64,000 nucleotides of DNA from Mycobacteriales bacterium (GCA_038204125.1 JBBRDH010000003.1:7326-71325); one strand, 5' to 3'. Shown: positions 49,326-60,279, counted from the stretch's first letter. Translations and numbers: made by a program. The notes: generated by a model not told the origin, from the sequence alone.

Positions 49326-50774
49326 TCAACGCCGGTCGTTGACCAGGGCGACGTGGTGTTCAGCCCCTCGGTGCAGGTCCAGTTGGACCGAGACGCCCGT
49401 GCTCCGGGCAGCCAGTAGCGCGGTTCCGGCGGTGGCGAGGACACAGACGCCTCCGGACACGACGAGCGCCACCGGCGCCCCCCAGCGCTCGGTGATCGCC
49501 CCCACCACCACAGAACCCAGCGGGGTGCCGCCCATGAAGACCAGCATGTAGAGGCTCATCACCCGCCCCCTGAGTTCGGGAACGGTGGACAGCTGGACGG
49601 TCGAGTTGGCCAGGGTGTTGAAGGTGACCGAGAGGAATCCGGTGACCACCAGCAGCGCGACGAACAATGGGAACCAGCCGGCCGCGCCGAGCAGGACCAG
49701 CAGGACGCCGAAGCCTGCGGCCGAGCCGAAGAGCAGCGCGAGGCGACCGGTCACCCGGCGGGCGGCGAGCAGCGCCCCGGCCACCGAACCGCCGGCGATG
49801 GCCGTGTTGAGCAGGCCGTAGATGTCGGCACCGGAGTGAAAGACGTTCTTCGTGTAGGCGGACAGAATGATGGCGAAGTTATAGCCGAAGGTGCCGATGA
49901 AGAAGACCAGGACGATGGGCCACAACAGTTCCGGACGGCTCCGCACGTATCGCAGGCCCTGCATGATCTGGCCCGGTCCGCGGTCGGCATGTGGCTGCCG
50001 CTGGAGTTCCCCGGTGCGCATCGCGACCAGGCCGGCCAACACGGCGAGATAGGTCACCGCGTTGCCGGCGAACGCCCAGCCGGACCCGACCACGCTGATC
50101 ACGATCCCGGCCAGCGCCGGACCGAGCATTCTGGCCAATTGGAAATTGCCCGAGTTCAGGCTGACCGCGTTGCGGACCAGCCGCGGCGGGACCATCTCGT
50201 TGACGAAGGTCTGCCGGGCCGGGTTGTCCACCACGGTGGCGACGCCCAACGCGAACGCGATGACATAGACCTGCCACACCTGCACGCTGCCGCGCAGGGT
50301 CAGTACCGCGAGCAGCGCGGCCAGCAGACCCATGCACGACTGGGTGATCAGCATCAGCGTCCGCTTGGGATAGCGATCCGCGATCAGGCCTCCCCACAGC
50401 CCGAACAGCAACATAGGCAGAAACTGCAGCGCGGTGGTGATGCCGACCGCGAGCGGCGAGTTGGTCAGCTGCAGCACCAACCAGTCCTGGGCGATCCGTT
50501 GCATCCAGGTGCCGGTGTTGGACACCACCTGCCCGACAAAGAAAAGCCGGTAGTTGCGGACGGCCAACGCCGCAAACATGGGCACCCGCCCCGTTGATTC
50601 CACCGTGGATTCCCCCAGTGATGCAGCCGGTGATCCAGCCGGTGATTCAGCGCGTGATTCGGCGCGTGATCCCTCAGGTGAGTCCTGCGGCAGGCCGGTA
50701 ACCGGCTGATTGGCGACCGGCAGGGAGCTGGTGTCCCTGGTCCCGGTGCTCACTCGAGCCCGCGCGGGGGTCAT
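49326..50774 (-). CDS. MFS transporter
   Basis: NYRLFFVGQVVSNTGTWMQRIAQDWLVL, GLIADRYPKR, ELRGRVMS; ATGA overlap with marR. Confidence 0.92.
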   Translation of the reverse strand: MTPARARVSTGTRDTSSLPVANQPVTGLPQDSPEGSRAESRAESPAGSPAASLGESTVESTGRVPMFAALAVRNYRLFFVGQVVSNTGTWMQRIAQDWLVLQLTNSPLAVGITTALQFLPMLLFGLWGGLIADRYPKRTLMLITQSCMGLLAALLAVLTLRGSVQVWQVYVIAFALGVATVVDNPARQTFVNEMVPPRLVRNAVSLNSGNFQLARMLGPALAGIVISVVGSGWAFAGNAVTYLAVLAGLVAMRTGELQRQPHADRGPGQIMQGLRYVRSRPELLWPIVLVFFIGTFGYNFAIILSAYTKNVFHSGADIYGLLNTAIAGGSVAGALLAARRVTGRLALLFGSAAGFGVLLVLLGAAGWFPLFVALLVVTGFLSVTFNTLANSTVQLSTVPELRGRVMSLYMLVFMGGTPLGSVVVGAITERWGAPVALVVSGGVCVLATAGTALLAARSTGVSVQLDLHRGAEHHVALVNDRR

Positions 50775-51247
50775 TCCAGCTCCGCCAGGCGGCGAAGAGC
50801 CGGGCCGGCGGCAGCCAGGACCGCCTGATCGGCGTCATCGAGCCGGCTGAGCTGAAAAGCGAGCCAGGCCGTCCGGACCAGCCGCGACTGTTCGACGAAT
50901 TCATCGCCGGCCGGCGTCCGGGAGACCAGCACCTGACGTCGGTCGTCCGGGTGCGGATCGCGCCGCAGATATCCCCTGGCCTCGAGTCGCTCGATGATCC
51001 TGGTCATCGAGGGAGGCTGGACGTGTTCACATCTGGCGAGTTGTCCCGGCGTCATCGGGCCTGCCGCACCGACTCGGCCCATCACTGCCGACTCGGAGGG
51101 CGACAGGTCGTCGCCGGCCTGTTGCTGCCGGAGCCGCCGGCCCAGGATCAACACCGCGCCACGCAGCACAGCGACCTCGTCGCCGACGTCCGGGGTACGG
51201 ACCGCGGTGGGGTCGGTCGGTGTACCTGGGTCAACAGCGTGGGTCAT
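50771..51247 (-). CDS. MarR-family regulator
   Basis: LSPSE, MTPGQLA..EHVQPPSMTRII..LE..G...R.PHPDDRR. Confidence 0.92.
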   Translation of the reverse strand: MTHAVDPGTPTDPTAVRTPDVGDEVAVLRGAVLILGRRLRQQQAGDDLSPSESAVMGRVGAAGPMTPGQLARCEHVQPPSMTRIIERLEARGYLRRDPHPDDRRQVLVSRTPAGDEFVEQSRLVRTAWLAFQLSRLDDADQAVLAAAGPALRRLAELE

Positions 51248-51358: not shown

Positions 51359-51898
51359 TCAGCTGGCGCGGGATTGCCGCCGCTTGGCCAGTTCGTCCTG
51401 CGCTACCGGCACCACCCGGTCGCCGTCGACCCGCTCCGCGGGAAATTCCGCGAGGGTGCCGGTCATCTCACGCATGGCGCCGCCGACCGCGATCCCGAAA
51501 ACACCCTGTCCGCCTTGCAGCAGGTCGACAATTTCCTCCGGCGAGGTGCACTCGTAGACCGTCGACCCGTCGGAGAACAGCGTGACACCCGCCAGATCCT
51601 CGACGCCCCGGAGCCGCAGGTGGTCGACCGCGACCCGGATGTTGTGCAACGAGACCCCGGTGTCCAGCAGCCGCTTCACGACCTTGAGTACGAGGATGTC
51701 CTTGAACGAATAGAGCCGCTGGGTGCCTGAGCCGGTCGCATCCCGCACCGTCGGCACCACCAGCGAGGTCCGCGCCCAGTAGTCGAGCTGGCGGTAGGTG
51801 ATCCCGGCAGCCTGACAAGCCGTGGTGCCTCGGTAGCCGACATATTCGTCCGGCAACGAAGCGTCCGGGAACAGTGCCCCCTGCTCGCTGCCTCGCAT
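51359..51898 (-). CDS. MerR-family regulator (Rv1830-like)
   Basis: GYRG..AC.AAGITYRQLDYWART, GSGTQRLYSFKDILVLK. Confidence 0.93.
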   Translation of the reverse strand: MRGSEQGALFPDASLPDEYVGYRGTTACQAAGITYRQLDYWARTSLVVPTVRDATGSGTQRLYSFKDILVLKVVKRLLDTGVSLHNIRVAVDHLRLRGVEDLAGVTLFSDGSTVYECTSPEEIVDLLQGGQGVFGIAVGGAMREMTGTLAEFPAERVDGDRVVPVAQDELAKRRQSRAS

Positions 51899-52099
51899 GC
51901 CGCCGCCCTCCTGCCGATGCTGCCCGACGCACTGCCTCGCGGGCCTCGCATGTCCTGCCGCAATCAATCCTGCTGCAATAAGTCCTGCCGTGATGTGAGC
52001 TGCCGTCTCGGGTCCACTTGGACGACGAATGACAAAAGCGCAACTCCTGCTGACGGTAGGCCCGCCACGGTCGGTGGTCAACGTCCGGACCGGGCGTGT

Positions 52100-52165: not shown

Positions 52166-52951
52166 TCAGGCGGCTCGGCGGTGGCCCCCCGATCGGCCCG
52201 ATCGGCCGGCCCGGTATCCACCCGACCGACGGCGGGCGGGCCCGGATGTTCCGACCGTCGGGCGATTGCGGGTCAACACGTCGTCGTCGGTCACTACATC
52301 GTCGTCGTCGGTCAGTCGGGCGTGATCCACGCCGGCCGGTAGCGGTTGCCGGGCCGTCCGGTCGACCAGGAACAGCAGCAGCAATCCGATCACGAGGAAG
52401 ATGTGCGTGCCCAACCTGGCGGCGGTGACCTGGCGGGAGGTGATGTCGGTGATCGACACGATGGTCAGGACGAGAACGAAAACCCCCAGTGCGGGCAGGA
52501 ACCCCCGGGCCAGCCGGGGCCACACCGCTGCGGCGAGCAGTCCGATGGCCACCGCGATGTTCCAGGCGGTGCTCTCGTTGAACAGGTGGTCCACGGCGGT
52601 AACCGGCGCCATGGCCATGCCTTCGTGAGCCGACCCGAAGAGCTGCGCCAAGCCCAGCGCCAGCTGCCCGAACCCGACCAGGCCGAGGTCGGCTCGCAGC
52701 AGCGCACCGGCTCGTCCGGGCACCGGCGCGGGGCGGGCGGCCTCGGCGGCCCGCAGGATCGGTCCGCTCAGATCGGCCCCGGCACTGACCTCCCGGACCC
52801 GCAGGCGACGCGTCAGTGCCACAGCCGCGGCGGCCCAGTCCCGGCAGGCCGGACAGTCCTCGACATGGTCGTCGATCTGCCCGGCGGGCAGCAGCGTCAG
52901 CTCGCCGTCCATCCGAGCGGACAACTCTTCCCGGTAGCGGTCGCAGTCCAT
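52166..52951 (-). CDS. zf-HC2 (ZAS-type) membrane anti-sigma factor
   Basis: MDCDRYREELSARMDGE, HVEDCPAC (HxxxCxxC), about four TM segments; divergent from ECF sigma. Confidence 0.85.
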   Translation of the reverse strand: MDCDRYREELSARMDGELTLLPAGQIDDHVEDCPACRDWAAAAVALTRRLRVREVSAGADLSGPILRAAEAARPAPVPGRAGALLRADLGLVGFGQLALGLAQLFGSAHEGMAMAPVTAVDHLFNESTAWNIAVAIGLLAAAVWPRLARGFLPALGVFVLVLTIVSITDITSRQVTAARLGTHIFLVIGLLLLFLVDRTARQPLPAGVDHARLTDDDDVVTDDDVLTRNRPTVGTSGPARRRSGGYRAGRSGRSGGHRRAA

Positions 52952-52959
52952 GGATTGGC

Positions 52960-52987
52960 AGTCGCGCCGGCCACCCTATTAGTTCCC
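52960..52987 (-). promoter_or_regulatory. ECF promoter of the anti-sigma gene
   Basis: GGGAAC-N17-CGACT, 8 nt before the ATG (leaderless geometry). Confidence 0.75.
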
Positions 52988-53075
52988 GGGCGGTTCCCGT
53001 CGTCGGCCGCTTTCCGCCCGGGGTACCCGATTCTGGGTATGACGGCCAGTGACCTGCCCGCCATAGGGTGTTGGG

Positions 53076-53690
53076 GTGGACCAGTCCGGCGGTATCGACG
53101 AGGTCACCCAGCTGGCCCTGGCCGCCCGGTCAGGTGACCCCCGGTCCATCGGCGAATTCATCCGGGCCGCCCAGCGTGACGTGTGGCGGTATCTGGCCTT
53201 TCACGCCGGAGCCGGCGACGCTGACGATCTGACCCAGGAAACCTTCCTACGAGTACTGGGGGCGCTTCCCAGGTTCGAGGGTCGCTCGTCGGCCCGGACC
53301 TGGCTCCTTTCCATCGCCCGACGGGTGTTCGTCGACCACCTGAGGCGTTCCGCTGCCCGCCCGCGCACCATCGGGTCCGACAACTGGGAAGGGGTCGCGG
53401 AAGACCAGTTGCACCGCAGAGCCGCTCCGGCCGCCTTCACCGACCTCGTCGAGATCGACATGCTGCTCGGCGCCCTGCCGGCCGACCGGCGGGAGGCGCT
53501 ACTGCTCACGCAGGTGCTCGGCCTGAGTTATGCAGAGGCCGCCCAGGTCTGCGACTGCCCAGTCGGCACGATTCGCTCCCGGGTGGCCAGAGCCAGAGAC
53601 GACCTGGTCCGTGCAGACCGGCTGCGATCACCGGAGCGGCGGGGCAACCCCAGCTCAGCTCGATCCCTCGGATCGATCGGTTCGCGGTGA
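53076..53690 (+). CDS. ECF RNA polymerase sigma factor, SigC-like
   Basis: FIRAAQRDVWR, ADDLTQETFLR, FEGRSSARTWLLSIAR, CPVGTIRSRVARAR; close to recalled mycobacterial SigC; TAGGGT 6 nt before GTG. Confidence 0.92.
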   Translation: MDQSGGIDEVTQLALAARSGDPRSIGEFIRAAQRDVWRYLAFHAGAGDADDLTQETFLRVLGALPRFEGRSSARTWLLSIARRVFVDHLRRSAARPRTIGSDNWEGVAEDQLHRRAAPAAFTDLVEIDMLLGALPADRREALLLTQVLGLSYAEAAQVCDCPVGTIRSRVARARDDLVRADRLRSPERRGNPSSARSLGSIGSR

Positions 53691-53705
53691 CCCGGCCAAG
53701 TTTCC

Positions 53706-55673
53706 TCAGAAGATGTTGATGCGGACGGTGGTGGTGACGGCGTCGAATTCCGTGGCGCGGACGGCGACGGAGAAGGTCCACAGGCCGGTGCCGGGCAGCA
53801 GCACCTCGTAGGCCTGATACGCCAGCGGTCCGGACGGCCGGAGCGGTATGGGCAGGGGGCCGAGCTGTTGGGCCGGTAGCGAAGCGGTGGCGGTGACCTG
53901 CTCGGGCACCCCACCTCCGTGAATGGTGAGCTTGACGGTGAAGGTCCCGGTGTGGCCGGAAGGGATGACGCTCACCGTCACACTGCGACGGTCGTCAAGC
54001 GTCGCGTCGCCGGATGCCGCGACGAACGTCGCCGAGGCGGCTGGAATGGCGGCGGCGGTCCGGGCCGGCGGCAGCGCGACCAGGACGCCGCTGACCGCCA
54101 GCACAATCGCGGCGAGGATCAGCTCGAACAACACCGAGCGCCGAAGCCCTCTGGTCTGCCCGGATGTTTCGCGATCGAGGTCGCCCGGGAGTTCGAGCAG
54201 ATCAAGGCGGGGGCCGACCGGTTCCACGCCGACATCTACCGGGCCTGGCCCGTCGCGGCCGGCGCCGAGTTCCGCCGCCGGGGTTCGCCCGCCGTTCAGC
54301 ATCAGGGGCGTGTCGACGAACCGACGCTGTACGGCCGACCGGGACACGCTGCCGGCAAGGAGCAGGCCGATGAACAGGGCCACCTTGAGTAGGACCAGCC
54401 GTCCGTATCCGGTGATCAAAAGGGCCACGACGCTGCCGGACTCCCGCCACGCCTGGTAGGTCCCGGTCGCCGCAATGACCACGACACACCCGAACGCGAC
54501 CCGGGAAAAGGTCGGTAGGACCGCCCTCAGTTCGGTCCGATCGGCACGAGGCAGCAACGCCGCCGCAAGGACGACCAGGCCACCGAGCCACGCCGACATC
54601 GCCGTCAGGTGGGCCATATCGCTGGACAACGCCAACCAACCGGGCCGGGCGACCCCGGCGTGGCCACTCGCGGAGATCGTGTACACGACGCCCAGGAACA
54701 GCAACGGACCCAGCCAGACCCGGCGCAACACAGGCCGGAGTTCAGAGGCCGGGCGGTGATCCACCGATGGGGACCACAGCATGATGTCGAGGGCGACACC
54801 CAGTCCTGCCAGCAGGAAGATCCGCGCCAGGTGCAGCCGACCGTACAAGGTGCCCACTGTGTCGGTGAGCAACCCGAACCGCCAGATACCGCCCACTCCG
54901 GTGCCGGCGGCATACGGTCCCTGCAGCAACAATTCCGCCACGGCACCGACGAGGCAGAATATCCAGCCCGTCGACACCAACCGACGCGCCGCCGGGCAGC
55001 GCCGCCCGGCCGGCCAGATGCTCAGCAGCAGCCACCCCCCGCCGAGCAACGCCAGGGCGGCATAGGTGACCGTTCGCGCGATGTCGAAAACTATTCTGGT
55101 GCTGGCTGGATCGACCGGCCCCGACGACGGGGGCAGAGCCGCCAGCGCCCCGTTGCCCACGACGAACCGGAAAGTGCCGTCGATCGGATGCGAATCGGCC
55201 GAGGTGACCCGCCAGCTGACGATGTACGTGCCGTCACCCAGGCCCGGTTTCAATGCAACCGCGACGACCCGGCCCTGCCCGTCGGGATGGGTCACGGCGC
55301 CCGCCCCGACATCCAACCCACGGGCGCTGATCACCCGCAGGTATCCCAGATCGGCACCGACGGGTTCGTCGAAGGTGATGCTGACCTGGGCGGGCGCTTT
55401 CCCCAACCTGGACCCGTCGGTCGGATCGGACGCCGCGACCGTCGCGTGCGCCGACGCCGGGGGGGCCAGCATGACTGCGCCTGCCAGCACACCGACGATC
55501 ACCAGGACCAACGCGGCAACGCGGAGAACCGTGCTCCGAACGGCTGCAAACGCCAATGTGGTCCCGATGTCAGACCACCCGCTTTGCCCTGGAAGAAACC
55601 GCCCTCCCATTGTGTCGTGCCACTGCTGTTTCGCCGATTCTGCGCCGTACAGGCGACGGTGACCTGCGGTCAT
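53706..55673 (-). CDS. CopC-CopD fusion copper uptake/resistance protein
   Basis: ASA|HATV..SDP..G...APAQV.ITFDEPV, WRVTSADSHP CopC; HLAR, GHAG, HLTAMSAWLGGL CopD; ATGA overlap with ycnI stop. Confidence 0.92.
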   Translation of the reverse strand: MTAGHRRLYGAESAKQQWHDTMGGRFLPGQSGWSDIGTTLAFAAVRSTVLRVAALVLVIVGVLAGAVMLAPPASAHATVAASDPTDGSRLGKAPAQVSITFDEPVGADLGYLRVISARGLDVGAGAVTHPDGQGRVVAVALKPGLGDGTYIVSWRVTSADSHPIDGTFRFVVGNGALAALPPSSGPVDPASTRIVFDIARTVTYAALALLGGGWLLLSIWPAGRRCPAARRLVSTGWIFCLVGAVAELLLQGPYAAGTGVGGIWRFGLLTDTVGTLYGRLHLARIFLLAGLGVALDIMLWSPSVDHRPASELRPVLRRVWLGPLLFLGVVYTISASGHAGVARPGWLALSSDMAHLTAMSAWLGGLVVLAAALLPRADRTELRAVLPTFSRVAFGCVVVIAATGTYQAWRESGSVVALLITGYGRLVLLKVALFIGLLLAGSVSRSAVQRRFVDTPLMLNGGRTPAAELGAGRDGPGPVDVGVEPVGPRLDLLELPGDLDRETSGQTRGLRRSVLFELILAAIVLAVSGVLVALPPARTAAAIPAASATFVAASGDATLDDRRSVTVSVIPSGHTGTFTVKLTIHGGGVPEQVTATASLPAQQLGPLPIPLRPSGPLAYQAYEVLLPGTGLWTFSVAVRATEFDAVTTTVRINIF

Positions 55674-56509
55674 CTCGCGGACGACCGTCGCCGGACGGCG
55701 AGCGCCAGCGTCACTCCTGACGCGCCCAGCACCGCTCCGAGGGCTCCGATCACCAACGCCCACGTCACCGATCCCTCGCTCGCCCCGTCGTTCCCGGCTG
55801 AAGCGGCCGGCGCCGCGACGACCGACACGGCCGGGTCGGTGGCCGACGACGCCGACGCCGTGACGGCGGGCGACGACCCGGTCGCGGTGACCGAAGTCAA
55901 GGATTCCGGTGCTGTCGAGGATTCCGGCGCTGACGACGTTCCGGCGGGCGTGTCCGGTGCCGCCGCTGCCAACTTCAGCACCGGCGCGGGATGCTCGGGT
56001 TCGGTTGCGCTGCCAGGGGCGGCCACCTCGATCCAGGCCACCACAGATTTGTCGCTGTAGGTCTGCACCGCCTTGAACGTCAGCGTGGATTCACCGTCCG
56101 GAAGTTTGCCGCCGATGATGGTGAACTCGCCGAAGAAGCCGGGCTTGATATCGGAGTTCGCATCCGCGGTCCAGTCGACCTCCGACACCACCTCGGTGAT
56201 CTCGCCGTCGTCTGTCTTGATTGGCGCGGCCAGTTTCATGGTGATGATCTTCGCGGTCCAACCCGGCAGCGGCGCGACCAGCACACCCGCGATCGGATGG
56301 GCCGTCGGCAGCTGAACCTTGAACCCGACGGTGCTTGCCGAAGCGCTCTCATCCGGTACCCGGAACGTGATGGCCGCATCACTCGCCCCCACTGTCACCC
56401 CGGGCGCAGCGACCGTGACATGCGCCGATGCCACACCGGCCCCGAGCAGGACCAGCCCAACCGTCAGCCCGAAGATGCTCACGACCCTGCCCGCACCCGT
56501 TCTTGCCAC
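55670..56509 (-). CDS. YcnI-family copper-binding membrane protein (DUF1775)
   Basis: ASA|HVTV, ITFRVPDES, FKAVQTYSD...V.WIE, EHPAPVL, C-terminal TM; AAGGAG RBS. Confidence 0.92.
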   Translation of the reverse strand: MARTGAGRVVSIFGLTVGLVLLGAGVASAHVTVAAPGVTVGASDAAITFRVPDESASASTVGFKVQLPTAHPIAGVLVAPLPGWTAKIITMKLAAPIKTDDGEITEVVSEVDWTADANSDIKPGFFGEFTIIGGKLPDGESTLTFKAVQTYSDKSVVAWIEVAAPGSATEPEHPAPVLKLAAAAPDTPAGTSSAPESSTAPESLTSVTATGSSPAVTASASSATDPAVSVVAAPAASAGNDGASEGSVTWALVIGALGAVLGASGVTLALAVRRRSSAR

Positions 56510-56559
56510 TGACAACTCCTTCACCCCCAGGACCGATTGATCCGGCCCGACGAATGGGT

Positions 56560-56587
56560 AGTCGCAGCGGACGGCACCTGAGTTCCA
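56560..56587 (-). promoter_or_regulatory. ECF promoter of ycnI-copCD
   Basis: TGGAAC-N17-CGACT, same motif and spacing as at 52960-52987. Confidence 0.75.
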
Positions 56588-56773: not shown

Positions 56774-57682
56774 CTATGCCCAGGGGATGGGGAGTTCGCC
56801 GAGCGCCACCAGGCTGCCAGCGAGTCGTCGACTGCCGACGACGCTGATTCCGCACCCGAGCTTGGCTACTACCGGGAGGCCGGCCGAGTCGATCGAGGCA
56901 CCGGAGTTGTCGGTAGTCCGCACCTCGACAGCCAGTGCGCCTTTAGCCGTGACATCGGGCAGGGTGGTCAGTCGGTGAGCCACCTGCACACAGGTTCGTT
57001 CAAGTTCGTCGCGGGAGACATGACCGTCACCCATGCCGGACGCGAGGACCTGGAACTCATGCGGCGATGAACACATCGATACGTAGCCGGTCGTCCAGTC
57101 ACGGCCGGAACCGCAAGATCCCAACAGCTCTCGCTCATTTCCGGTGGACAACGCATTGCGAAGCGAGCCGTCGTAACGCGCGACCGCCGTCTGAGCCGGA
57201 TCAGCTGGGATGAACATGGCGCAGGCGAGCCAATGCTGCCCCACCGCCTGTTGCAGCGGTGCTGGACTGAACAGCGCCGAGAACGCATAGATTCTGGGGG
57301 ACCAGTACTGGAACAGCGGGACGGCCCCGACGTAGCTTGATCCTGCGTCGAGACAAGCACCGGGGTTGGGATCGCCGACCGACCGACCGGTGTTGCTTCC
57401 CGTGGTCGCCGGAGCCTGGGCCGGATTGGCGAGGACGGCGACAACTTCGCCGAACCGAAATCGGTCGCAAGATTTGAACTGCAGCTGAGGATAGATGTAG
57501 TCGCCAGTCTCCCAGTTCACTGGGTTCACCGGGTCAGGGACACAGTCACCCACGGTCGGCGGACCAGGCACCGATAGGGCCTGTGGCAACCCGGCGACCC
57601 GACGTGGCTCGAGCCCCGCGAACACCAGGACCACCAGCACCGCAACAGCGAGGAGCAGCACGCCCAGCTGTCGGCGTTCCAC
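56774..57682 (-). CDS. Septum-formation-family-like protein, paralog 3
   Basis: TM, GPPTVGDCV, C...FGEVVAV, GQHWLAC, GSLRNA, CSSPHEFQ, GSLVALGELPIPW. Confidence 0.7.
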   Translation of the reverse strand: MERRQLGVLLLAVAVLVVLVFAGLEPRRVAGLPQALSVPGPPTVGDCVPDPVNPVNWETGDYIYPQLQFKSCDRFRFGEVVAVLANPAQAPATTGSNTGRSVGDPNPGACLDAGSSYVGAVPLFQYWSPRIYAFSALFSPAPLQQAVGQHWLACAMFIPADPAQTAVARYDGSLRNALSTGNERELLGSCGSGRDWTTGYVSMCSSPHEFQVLASGMGDGHVSRDELERTCVQVAHRLTTLPDVTAKGALAVEVRTTDNSGASIDSAGLPVVAKLGCGISVVGSRRLAGSLVALGELPIPWA

Positions 57683-57861: not shown

Positions 57862-58380
57862 TCAGGGTTTGTCGCCGCCGAAGTCCTCCGGCGAGACCGA
57901 GTCGAGGAATTCGCGGAAACGTTCGACCTCGTCCTCGGCCTCCTCCGGGTCCTCGTCAGGCGCATCGGGATCCACCTCGTCGGTCTCCTCGGTGACGACC
58001 ACGCCGGCTTCGTCGAGCACGGCGTCCTCGACGAATACCGGAATCCCGACCCGGACCGCCAGGGCGACCGCATCTGAGGGCCGGGCGGACACGGTGGTGC
58101 CGTCGTCGAAGGCCAACTCGCCGAAGTAGGTGCCCTCCCGGAAGTCCACGACCCGGACCTGGTCGACCCGGCGGCCGAGCGCGGTGATGACCTGCCCGAG
58201 GAGGTCGTGGGTCAGCGGGCGGGCGGGCCGCACGCCCTGAAGGTGCATGGCGATCGCGGTCGCCTCCACCGAACCGATCATGATAGGCAGGCTGCGCGGC
58301 CCGGAAACCTCGGCCAGCATCAGGATTGGTTGCGAATTGGGCATCTCCACTCGGACGCCGACGATGCGCATCTCGATCAT
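57862..58380 (-). CDS. Bifunctional nuclease family protein (DUF151)
   Basis: LPIMIG..EATAIA, RPLTHDL, VSARPSDAVALA. Confidence 0.95.
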   Translation of the reverse strand: MIEMRIVGVRVEMPNSQPILMLAEVSGPRSLPIMIGSVEATAIAMHLQGVRPARPLTHDLLGQVITALGRRVDQVRVVDFREGTYFGELAFDDGTTVSARPSDAVALAVRVGIPVFVEDAVLDEAGVVVTEETDEVDPDAPDEDPEEAEDEVERFREFLDSVSPEDFGGDKP

Positions 58381-58505
58381 CTCGGTTGGCCTTTCTGCTT
58401 CACGTCCGAACGCTACACGGGGTCACGATCGAACGGCCCGCGCTCGGGCCTGTGCTGCCGGCGGAACATTCGCGGCCGCCGAACTGCCCGGTCAGCGGGC
58501 CGGAG

Positions 58506-59225
58506 TCAGCGGCCGAGTTCGCGGCGCAGTCCGGCTTTCACCAGCAGGGCGTGCAGCCGCAGGACTGTCGCGGACACGGCCGCAGCGGTGGCTCCGGCCC
58601 GCTCCCGCGCGTCGGGGTCCCGCTGCCGCGCCTGGGCCGAGACCAGTTGCGCGATCAGCGACGATTCCCGTTCGGCGGCGGTGCGGAACGGCCTGAGATG
58701 GCGTGGTTCCAGGCCGGCCGCCAGCAGCTCGCCGGCGGTGGTGGCAATCAGCGCCGAGTCCGCGTCGAAATAGCCGCCGGGACCGGCCGAAAGCAGCCCG
58801 TACTGCTCCAGTTCGGTCAGGTCGGAAGCCTCCAGTCCGCTCTCCGCCAGCAACTCGGCCCTGGTCATTCTGATGTCCCTGACCGGGGCCGCGTCCCGGG
58901 CCGACCCGTTGGTAGAGACCAGCGCCCGCGGCAACCGGGCGCTCGGCGTCGCCGGTTCCAGCCCGCGGTCGATCGCGTCGAGGTGGTCCTTGATCACCTT
59001 GAGCGGAAGGTAGTGATCGCGCTGGGCGGCCAGCACGTAACGCAGCCGCTCGACGTCGACCGCCGAGAACTGCCGGTACCCGGAGGGGGTGCGGCGCGGG
59101 GTCAGCAGTCCCTCGGACTCCAGAAATCGAATTTTGGAGATGGAGACGTCCGGAAATTCGGGTTTCAACGAGGCCAGGACGGTGCCGATACTGGCCATTC
59201 CGTAGGGAAGGCCCGCCGCCGTCAT
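58506..59225 (-). CDS. MerR-family regulator (FtsR/Rv1828-like)
   Basis: SIG.VL..L..EFPDVSISKIRFLESEGL..P.RTPSGYR, HYLPLKVIK. Confidence 0.93.
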   Translation of the reverse strand: MTAAGLPYGMASIGTVLASLKPEFPDVSISKIRFLESEGLLTPRRTPSGYRQFSAVDVERLRYVLAAQRDHYLPLKVIKDHLDAIDRGLEPATPSARLPRALVSTNGSARDAAPVRDIRMTRAELLAESGLEASDLTELEQYGLLSAGPGGYFDADSALIATTAGELLAAGLEPRHLRPFRTAAERESSLIAQLVSAQARQRDPDARERAGATAAAVSATVLRLHALLVKAGLRRELGR

Positions 59226-59677
59226 GACCCGGCGTCACCCTCCGCCGGGCTTCCGGTCAGGAAGACCAGCCGGAACTTCCCGATCTGCACCTCGTCGCCG
59301 TTCGACAGCGTCGCCGTCTCGATCGATTCCCGGTTGACGTACGTGCCGTTCAGCGAGCCGACGTCGGAAACCTCGAATCCCCGACCGGTGCGGCGGAATT
59401 CCGCGTGCCGGCGGGAGACCGTGACGTCGTCCAGAAAGATGTCGCTCTCCGGATGGCGGCCGGCGCTGACCAGGTCCTTGTCGAGTTGGAAGCGGGACCC
59501 GGCGTTGGGCCCGCGCTTGACGACCAGGAGGGCGGCGCCGCCGGTGAGAGCTTCCAGGCCACCCAGGCTTTCGCTGTCACGCTCGACTTCGGGGTTGAAG
59601 AAGCCGGCTGCGAATATAGTGGTCGATTCGACGGGGTTTGCCACGGGGGAATTCGTGGCCCGCTCGCTGTTGGTCAC
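59222..59677 (-). CDS. garA: FHA-domain regulator GarA/OdhI
   Basis: LLVVKRGPNAGSRF, GRHPESDIFLDDVTVSRRHA, DVGSLNGTYVNR, GKFRLVF. Confidence 0.92.
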   Translation of the reverse strand: MTNSERATNSPVANPVESTTIFAAGFFNPEVERDSESLGGLEALTGGAALLVVKRGPNAGSRFQLDKDLVSAGRHPESDIFLDDVTVSRRHAEFRRTGRGFEVSDVGSLNGTYVNRESIETATLSNGDEVQIGKFRLVFLTGSPAEGDAGS

Positions 59678-59895
59678 TCCGGGACTCCTGTCGTCAATAA
59701 GCCATGACCGGTCGGCTGATCGGGGTGGGTACGGGAGGCCCGCATCCCGGCTGTTGCTGCCATCTCGGACAAACCACCCCGTGGACCCGTCTGGCCTACC
59801 CGGTCGCATGGGCATCGCCCCTGCCGTCGGACTGTTCCAAGAACCGTACCGTGCCGGGCTTGCGGGGTACACCGTTCGGCCGATGATCAAGCGGG

Positions 59896-60279
59896 TCAGG
59901 CTTCGTCGACGAGTTCCCCGTAGGCCGCGGCATCGAGCAGGTCGGACAATTCCCCGGGGTCGGAGAGCTGGACCTCGATCATCCACCCGTCGCCGTAGGG
60001 ATCTGCGTTGACCAGTTCGGGCGCCGAGTCCAGCGCATCGTTGCGAGCGATGACGGTGCCGTTGACCGGCGCGAAGATGTCCGACACCGACTTGGTCGAC
60101 TCCACCTCGCCGATCGAATCCCCCGGCGCGACCATCGTGCCGGCCTCCGGCATCTGGACGAAGACAATGTCGCCCAGAGCATTCTGCGCAAAATCGGTGA
60201 TGCCGATGTGGACGGTGTCCACACCCGAGCTACGGATCCACTCATGATCGGAGCTGTACTTCAAGTCCTGCGGGATCAC
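59896..60279 (-). CDS. gcvH: Glycine cleavage system H protein
   Basis: YSSDHEW, GITDFAQ..LGDIVF, EVESTKSVSD lipoyl-Lys, VNADPYGDGW. Confidence 0.97.
   Translation of the reverse strand: MIPQDLKYSSDHEWIRSSGVDTVHIGITDFAQNALGDIVFVQMPEAGTMVAPGDSIGEVESTKSVSDIFAPVNGTVIARNDALDSAPELVNADPYGDGWMIEVQLSDPGELSDLLDAAAYGELVDEA

Follow-up and report, generated by a model that had tools for sequence, protein, structure and literature searches.

A minimal predicted switch of a SigC-type sigma factor, its candidate membrane anti-sigma factor and a copper-import operon in a Mycobacteriales genome

How actinobacteria, Mycobacterium tuberculosis included, sense copper starvation has been posed as an open question, and an anti-SigC factor is not known (PMC7924339). 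A 64,000-nucleotide stretch of a Mycobacteriales bacterium (GCA_038204125.1, JBBRDH010000003.1:7326-71325; hereafter the window) raises the question in compact form, with four genes at positions 52166-56587: an extracytoplasmic function (ECF) sigma factor, a zinc-finger membrane protein encoded divergently from it, and a coupled ycnI-copCD operon. A preliminary description of the window had read these genes as a complete copper-responsive switch, and all four are indeed present. Do they form a circuit, and what would it respond to? Our analysis points, with good probability, to a minimal switch of the ECF36 (SigC) type, whose sole predicted targets in this genome are the gene of its own anti-sigma factor and the copper-import operon ycnI-copCD.

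The sigma factor (53076-53690, plus strand, 204 aa) is built of the sigma-2 and sigma-4 domains only (Pfam Sigma70_r2, 4.3e-17; Sigma70_r4_2, 5.3e-17), with no sigma-3 domain. Its best matches among solved structures are the domains of M. tuberculosis SigC (2o7g, 9.5e-32; 2o8x, 1.9e-20), and it scores 217 bits against the NCBIfam SigC model PRK09649, whose cut-off is 219. Judged by these comparisons, the protein appears closest to M. tuberculosis SigC and is probably of the ECF36 type, in keeping with its first description as SigC-like. M. tuberculosis SigC itself protects the cell from running short of copper, with ctpB and the nrp operon under its control (PMC7924339); it is classified as ECF36s4 and said to lack a discernible anti-sigma factor (PMC7826278).

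Candidate targets of the sigma factor were found through a shared promoter. The sequence GGAACT-N16-CGACT occurs twice in the window against 0.03 expected copies, and none of 100 shuffles reaches two. One copy (52960-52986, minus strand; pattern scan) precedes the gene of the zinc-finger protein, and the other (56560-56586, minus strand; pattern scan) lies about 50 nt upstream of the ycnI start codon. At the first site CGAC ends 9 nt before the ATG, too close for a leader to fit in between, and the transcript is therefore probably leaderless. The whole 5.5-Mb assembly contains five exact copies, of which the other three fall inside coding frames, so that the pair in the module are the only intergenic ones. 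A position weight matrix (PWM) built from 73 related anti-sigma promoters gives the anti-sigma promoter the top rank in the genome (19.7 bits) and places that of ycnI seventh (15.6 bits). Five of its top 30 matches, all of which were inspected, are intergenic, and only the two module sites keep both cores (GGAAC and CGAC) intact; further targets in this genome were rejected on that basis. The motif is absent from the remaining copper loci of the genome, namely a pair of P-type ATPases with CopZ (C91) and a CtiP-like CopD/CtaG gene (C38). Since both intergenic exact-core sites belong to the module, the early description of it as self-contained is supported for this genome, within the limits of a 96%-complete assembly, with a predicted regulon confined to two promoters within 4.4 kb. 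A scan for sigma-70 promoters and terminators yielded nothing useful.

No SigC-type promoter was found upstream of the sigma gene itself, and among relatives the motif exceeds 12 bits upstream of 1 of 83 sigma genes, a count on which autoregulation of the sigma gene was rejected. The M. tuberculosis sigC gene is likewise not autoregulated, according to Chang 2012 as cited in PMC7924339. The sigma gene would presumably be expressed constitutively.

The divergently encoded protein (52166-52951, minus strand, 261 aa), separated from the sigma gene by a gap of 124 bp, has the features of an anti-sigma factor. It matches zf-HC2 (Pfam, E = 1.7e-7), and its zinc motif is complete (C3, H29, C33 and C36, in the order C-H-C-C). 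An AlphaFold2 model with a mean pLDDT (predicted local distance difference test) of 81 comprises three N-terminal helices, four long transmembrane (TM) helices (80-104, 117-143, 146-171 and 177-201) and a disordered, Arg-rich C-terminal tail that ends in Ala-Ala, in agreement with the initial view of a zinc-finger membrane anti-sigma candidate with about four TM segments. An alignment of 92 family members shows D15, E17, H29, C33, C36, L89, H122, A129, D169 and H183 to be invariant, and C3, E126, W130 and N131 to be conserved in at least 90% of the sequences; zf-HC2 is matched by 90 of the 92. The family profile matches the RsiW anti-sigma domain (E = 2.6e-6). When the model was compared with the PDB using Foldseek, the N-terminal domain showed weak RsiW/MucA-like similarity, and neither a significant whole-chain match nor a significant relative of the membrane bundle was returned.

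Does this protein belong to the neighbouring sigma factor? A scan of species-representative genomes returned 409 loci with an anti-sigma relative, and the counts over 80 loci given here refer to the best 80 of these 409, drawn from Rhodococcus, Nocardia, Mycobacterium, Amycolatopsis, Saccharopolyspora, Lentzea, Kutzneria, Actinokineospora, Actinocatenispora and others. A SigC-like sigma gene lies divergent from the anti-sigma gene and within 400 bp in 54 of the 80 loci, directly upstream on the same strand in 11, and 1-7 kb away in 10, which makes it immediately adjacent in 65/80 and present within 7 kb in 75/80. It was not seen in the other five, two of which are cut by contig ends. Upstream of the anti-sigma gene, GGGAAC(T/C)-N16-CGAC is found in all 80 loci; the distance from the end of CGAC to the start codon is 9 nt in 72 loci and 10 nt in 8, and the promoter is kept even where it is placed within the 3′ end of the sigma gene.

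The two proteins also occur as natural fusions. In the genus of M. helveticum, 130 of 201 sampled genomes hold a match to the anti-sigma family, many of them in open frames of 460-600 aa. The four Mycobacterium genes that were examined are in-frame fusions, with the anti-sigma part N-terminal and a SigC-like sigma factor C-terminal, the latter 56-58% identical to the window sigma. The fused genes have no upstream GGAAC motif and carry another conserved upstream sequence instead (...TTTGCGC...GCAACGATGCAGGGATG). In these fusion loci (L115-L118, in genomes G114, G133, G160 and G136) the protein measures about 455 aa, and a linker takes the place of the Ala-Ala terminus. In six further Mycobacterium genomes (G198, G199, G119, G165, G117 and G188) the anti-sigma homologue has one TGA or TAG within its frame, for which gene decay to a pseudogene and an error in sequencing are both conceivable.

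Might the zf-HC2 protein be a mere member of the regulon, for example in metal handling, and no regulator of this sigma factor? Its gene is divergent and forms no sigma/anti-sigma operon, and the PDB search returned no structural relative of its four-helix membrane domain, both of which would suit that role. Such a reading is nonetheless extremely improbable, because it leaves the anti-sigma domain signature, the RsiW profile match, the near-universal linkage to the sigma gene and the SigC fusions without explanation. Linkage, the shared promoter and the fusions together make a sigma/anti-sigma partnership very likely, as first proposed, and we regard the zf-HC2 protein as very likely the anti-sigma factor of the adjacent SigC-like sigma, with binding between the two predicted.

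Proteins of this kind have been noticed before. The mycobacterial homologues of the window anti-sigma (32-38% identity) carry both PF13490 (zf-HC2) and PF10039 (DUF2275), and so belong to the same family. The window protein has no match to the DUF2275 model at E<=0.01, and 1 of the 92 family members matches it; since the model finds the mycobacterial homologues and misses the window protein, the latter is a relative outside the current model. The preliminary description took M. tuberculosis SigC to have no cognate anti-sigma factor. This holds for M. tuberculosis as published (PMC7924339), but not for the M. avium complex, in which sigC is fused with an Rv0093c-like protein bearing an 'anti-sigma signature' (PMC7563442), nor for those ECF36 members whose fused anti-sigma part has three to four TM helices plus DUF2275 (PMC8999054).

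Some genomes contain two sigma/anti-sigma pairs: Kutzneria viridogrisea (L061 and L082), a single contig of a metagenome-assembled genome (MAG; L017 and L075) and a Rhodococcus MAG (L007 and L014). The candidate targets beside one pair differ from those beside the other, which hints at paralogous copper or metal circuits that are insulated from each other.

The second predicted target in the window is the ycnI-copCD operon. YcnI (55670-56509, minus strand; Pfam DUF1775, 4e-41) has a signal peptide ending ASA|H (...GVASA|HVTV...), a downstream RVPDE motif and a C-terminal TM anchor, and is predicted to bind copper. Its start is likely the GTG at 56509, six bases after the ribosome-binding site AAGGAG (56521-56516, minus strand), which was read from the sequence. 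The stop codon of ycnI shares the sequence ATGA with the first ATG of copCD, consistent with the coupling noted at the outset. The copCD gene (53706-55673, minus strand) encodes a YcnJ-like CopC-CopD fusion membrane protein (Pfam CopC, 1.1e-21; CopD, 4.1e-13); its reading frame is open up to 55763, and its start codon is putative. In the long open reading frame the CopC domain (residues 106-202) is followed by a CopD membrane domain with about 9-10 hydrophobic segments; the protein falls below the cut-offs of the NCBIfam CopC/CopD equivalog models. The CopC domain starts with His after a signal anchor (PPASA|HATV...) and contains a DSH motif (...SADSHP...), and we take the N-terminal His and the D-x-H to be the Cu(II)-site ligands of CopC. 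The C-terminal ~120 aa of CopCD (window 53706-54100) form an extracytoplasmic beta-rich domain after the last TM helix. This domain has no Pfam match at E<=0.01 and may be the counterpart of a YtkA-like domain in YcnJ of B. subtilis.

We then compared the placement of ycnI-copCD in other genomes. The order anti-sigma, ycnI, copCD recurs in three Amycolatopsis species (L005, L034 and L049). At the second pair of Kutzneria viridogrisea (L082) ycnI-copCD adjoins the pair, and GGGAAC-N17-CGAC precedes both the anti-sigma gene and ycnI; the operon also stands beside the pair in a metagenomic relative (L113/L114), and ycnI alone does so in Kutzneria sp. 744 (L051). A DUF1775 gene turned up in 24 of 25 further genomes with the pair. 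In these pair-carrying genomes, the ycnI genes located away from the pair have no such promoter within 1.4 kb, and ycnI as a universal target was rejected, the motif being found upstream only where ycnI sits beside the sigma/anti-sigma pair. Because most ycnI-copC operons are without the promoter, YcnI-CopCD is best viewed as a lineage-specific target. That the four genes form a co-occurring unit did not hold for most genomes in the neighbourhood search: ycnI-copCD lies beside the pair only in L005, L034, L049, L082 and L113/L114, and with adjacency limited to some lineages and distant ycnI genes without the promoter, the four-gene unit is not a conserved module. Of the switch as first described, the gene identities and the wiring within this genome largely stand; its conservation across genomes as a set of four does not.

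A copper theme is nevertheless recognisable beyond ycnI-copCD. Further motif sites of at least 14.5 bits are present in 42 of the 80 loci, and the first genes behind them, typed by Pfam, encode PepSY_TM (9), HMA (6, comprising four P1B-type ATPases and two CopZ-like proteins), Peripla_BP_2 (6), DUF5134 (5), MFS (5), Caa3_CtaG (4), FecCD (3), CoA-transferase (3), PCuAC (1) and TauD (1) proteins. The closest relatives of the window anti-sigma (57-60% identity) lie in an island of sigma, DUF5134, Cu-ATPase, CopD/CtaG, CtaG and anti-sigma genes, which in L113/L114 additionally holds YcnI and CopCD, and CtpB-like ATPases beside sigC in other mycobacteria (L047 and L073) carry GGGAACT-N16-CGACT. Copper ATPases, CopZ, DUF5134, CtaG, PCuAC, PepSY and metallophore importer genes follow motif sites in relatives, and the copper theme of the predicted targets, an element of the preliminary description, holds across genera and agrees with the SigC regulons published for M. 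tuberculosis and Corynebacterium glutamicum.

A different group of genes, for a methyltransferase, a FecCD permease, an ATP-binding cassette (ABC) ATPase, a Peripla_BP_2 protein and a pyridoxal-phosphate (PLP)-dependent cysteine-synthase-like enzyme, stands beside the pair in eight loci (L004, L021, L023, L036, L040, L069, L074 and L080). Several of these clusters carry SigC-type promoters, and the recurrent set may serve to make and import a chalkophore-like metallophore.

Does the switch answer to too little copper or to too much? Data from M. tuberculosis and Corynebacterium glutamicum, together with the nature of the targets, lead us to favour shortage, and it is somewhat probable that copper shortage, not excess, inactivates the anti-sigma factor. 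The opposite arrangement, in which a copper-bound anti-sigma would free the sigma factor and YcnI and CopCD would sequester or resist the metal, draws on the original naming of CopC and CopD as resistance proteins and on the P1B-type ATPases, CopZ-like HMA proteins and DUF5134 among the targets of relatives. It fits poorly with targets that also include oxidase-assembly factors and metallophore-type importers, and with the CopZ-ATPase export loci of this genome (C91), which are without the motif. In B. subtilis, moreover, ycnJ and ycnI are induced by copper limitation. M. tuberculosis SigC counters copper starvation, and its prolonged induction brings signs of copper overload (PMC7924339). A response to excess is on these grounds quite improbable.

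If copper shortage is the signal, how could it reach the sigma factor? In the anti-sigma family the loop between TM1 and TM2 (105-121) contains 9.9% His and 6.9% Met, against 3.6% and 1.6% in the whole protein, and no Cys; being His/Met-rich and Cys-free, it is composed as copper sites in an oxidising compartment typically are. The invariant H122 follows directly after this loop, and TM3 and TM4 carry D169 and H183 at their outer ends. Should the anti-sigma domain be cytoplasmic, the modelled topology would put the loop, H122, E126, D169 and H183 at the outer membrane face and the Arg-rich tail in the cytoplasm. We tentatively propose that the anti-sigma factor senses extracytoplasmic copper through the His/Met loop and the H122/D169/H183 cluster, with E126 as a possible addition; this is possible, though we would not put it above an even chance.

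The same wiring could also carry an indirect signal, in which the anti-sigma factor binds no copper and reads a consequence of its shortage, such as failed cytochrome aa3 assembly or electron flow, the redox state of the membrane, or thiol oxidation of the zinc site. The C. glutamicum sigma-C regulon is induced both by copper deprivation and by disturbed heme a insertion (PMC7337898), the anti-sigma factor has a complete C-H-C-C zinc motif that could be oxidised, and the oxidase-assembly genes CtaG and PCuAC are among the targets. On the other side, the outer loop is rich in His and Met without any Cys, and invariant His, Asp and His residues at the outer ends of TM2-TM4 occupy the place expected of a metal site, not of a redox or quinone site. 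We consider an indirect signal unlikely, while giving it clearly more weight than a response to copper excess.

The end of the protein suggests how the anti-sigma factor might be removed. Ala-Ala forms the C-terminus of 70 of the 80 homologues, against a background of ~3% in the same loci, and the remainder end in VA, AG, AS or TG. In actinobacteria ClpXP recognises proteins by a C-terminal Ala-Ala, as in the case of the ECF sigma factor AntA (PMC8999054). It is conceivable, and we advance it with reserve, that this terminus makes the anti-sigma factor a ClpXP-type substrate, whose turnover could be regulated or constitutive. A more far-reaching version, doubtful as a whole, would make the Rv0093c/DUF2275-related protein the missing anti-SigC and a direct copper sensor: stable and bound to SigC while copper occupies the His/Met loop and the H122/D169/H183 site, it would upon copper loss be handed to ClpXP via Ala-Ala, and the leaderless mRNA would reset the system. 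If true, such a homeostat would work by proteolysis but unlike the customary site-1/site-2 protease cascades, and would account for copper-starvation sensing in Mycobacteriales and Pseudonocardiales.

Returning to the ECF36 switch that we favour, its steps can be set out as follows (all of them predicted from genes, promoters and models). The membrane anti-sigma factor would sequester the sigma factor via its cytoplasmic zinc-binding domain; once released, the sigma factor would drive both GGAACT-N16-CGACT promoters. The ycnI-copCD products would then bind Cu(II) outside the cytoplasm and transport it inward, while the leaderless anti-sigma mRNA made from the sigma-type promoter would provide negative feedback and reset the switch. 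Several points weigh against this picture. Most ycnI-copC operons in pair-carrying genomes are without the promoter, the sigma factor stays 2 bits short of the SigC model cut-off, and the geometry of the H122/D169/H183 cluster is deduced from helix ends in the model. The source assembly is a MAG of 5.5 Mb, 96% complete and split into 295 contigs, from which further targets may be absent. For C. glutamicum, finally, a defective aa3 oxidase has been proposed as the stimulus, and not copper itself (PMC7337898).

The module sits between a MerR gene (51359-52081) and a nuclease-domain gene (57862-58380; Pfam), and the flanks (51359-52081 and 57862-60279) resemble a cluster of gcvH, FHA (garA-like), MerR, bifunctional-nuclease and MerR genes, with identities taken from Pfam. 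The module appears to be inserted into a cluster of this gcvH-garA-MerR-nuclease-MerR type, which we take to be contiguous in M. tuberculosis as Rv1826-Rv1830. Directly upstream of the ycnI promoter and on the same strand, 56774-57682 (minus strand) encodes a 302-aa protein with one N-terminal TM helix and several Cys; it has no Pfam or NCBIfam match and no homologue in the 80 related loci. Beyond the MerR gene, at 49326-51247 (minus strand), a MarR regulator gene overlaps the start of an MFS_3 (enterobactin-exporter-like) gene, and no connection of this pair with the module was found.

What does the locus add to what has been published? An association of SigC with anti-sigma factors is already predicted, as uncharacterised, in classification work and reviews; the term 'anti-SigC' does not occur in the searchable literature, and no published function or signal for the anti-sigma family was found in the papers that can be searched. 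New, as far as we found, are the universal sigma-dependent, probably leaderless promoter of the anti-sigma gene, the family-wide lack of sigma autoregulation, the candidate outer-face metal site with its His/Met loop, the Ala-Ala terminus and the two-promoter regulon in this genome. The gain over earlier predictions lies in mechanistic detail and testability rather than in a new class of system. Taken together with over 400 relatives, the locus suggests that a SigC-type sigma factor normally has a specific membrane anti-sigma factor for a partner, one with conserved candidate ligands for a metal, a sigma-dependent and probably leaderless promoter in a fixed place, and a terminus resembling a degron. 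With a predicted regulon of two promoters within 4.4 kb, the signal path could be reconstituted here on a very small scale, and Amycolatopsis bartoniae and Kutzneria viridogrisea are cultured, non-pathogenic relatives with the same layout.

Among known systems, M. tuberculosis SigC (ECF36; Rv2069) is nearest, being the best sequence match of the window sigma and sharing its apparent lack of autoregulation and the role in copper acquisition predicted for it; it differs in that the window has an adjacent anti-sigma gene and in the targets, which are ycnI-copCD and not ctpB or nrp (ppe1-nrp). The Rv0093c-like/DUF2275 (PF10039) proteins fused to SigC are of the same family as the window anti-sigma, and the fusions were confirmed as in-frame, whereas the window carries separate divergent genes. 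Rv0093c itself is a putative member of the family, and no match in the sampled genus search fitted its expected position. The effector pair of YcnI (DUF1775) and YcnJ (a CopC-CopD fusion) is shared with B. subtilis ycnKJI, where a Pfam control search found DUF1775. That operon, in contrast, is controlled by the repressors YcnK and CsoR instead of an ECF sigma factor with its anti-sigma. In C. glutamicum the sigma-C regulon, with cydABDC, ctiP and the copC/PCuAC operon, likewise joins a SigC-type sigma factor to cytochrome oxidase supply, and copper deprivation induces it (PMC7337898). The copper supply of the oxidase is served there by CtiP and the CopC/PCuAC operon (PMC9145763), and CopD/CtaG (CtiP-like), CopC and PCuAC-type genes recur among the targets of relatives; no anti-sigma factor is known in that system, however, and its sigC is repressed by HrrA (PMC7337898). 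Finally, CnrH-CnrYX (Ni/Co) and CorE (Cu, Myxococcus) are also cases in which ECF sigma factors couple metal status to transcription (PMC6851896, PMC3107203). In CnrYX the metal is sensed by a separate periplasmic protein and CorE, which has no anti-sigma factor, itself binds copper, whereas the candidate sensor in the window is a four-helix membrane zinc-finger anti-sigma factor.

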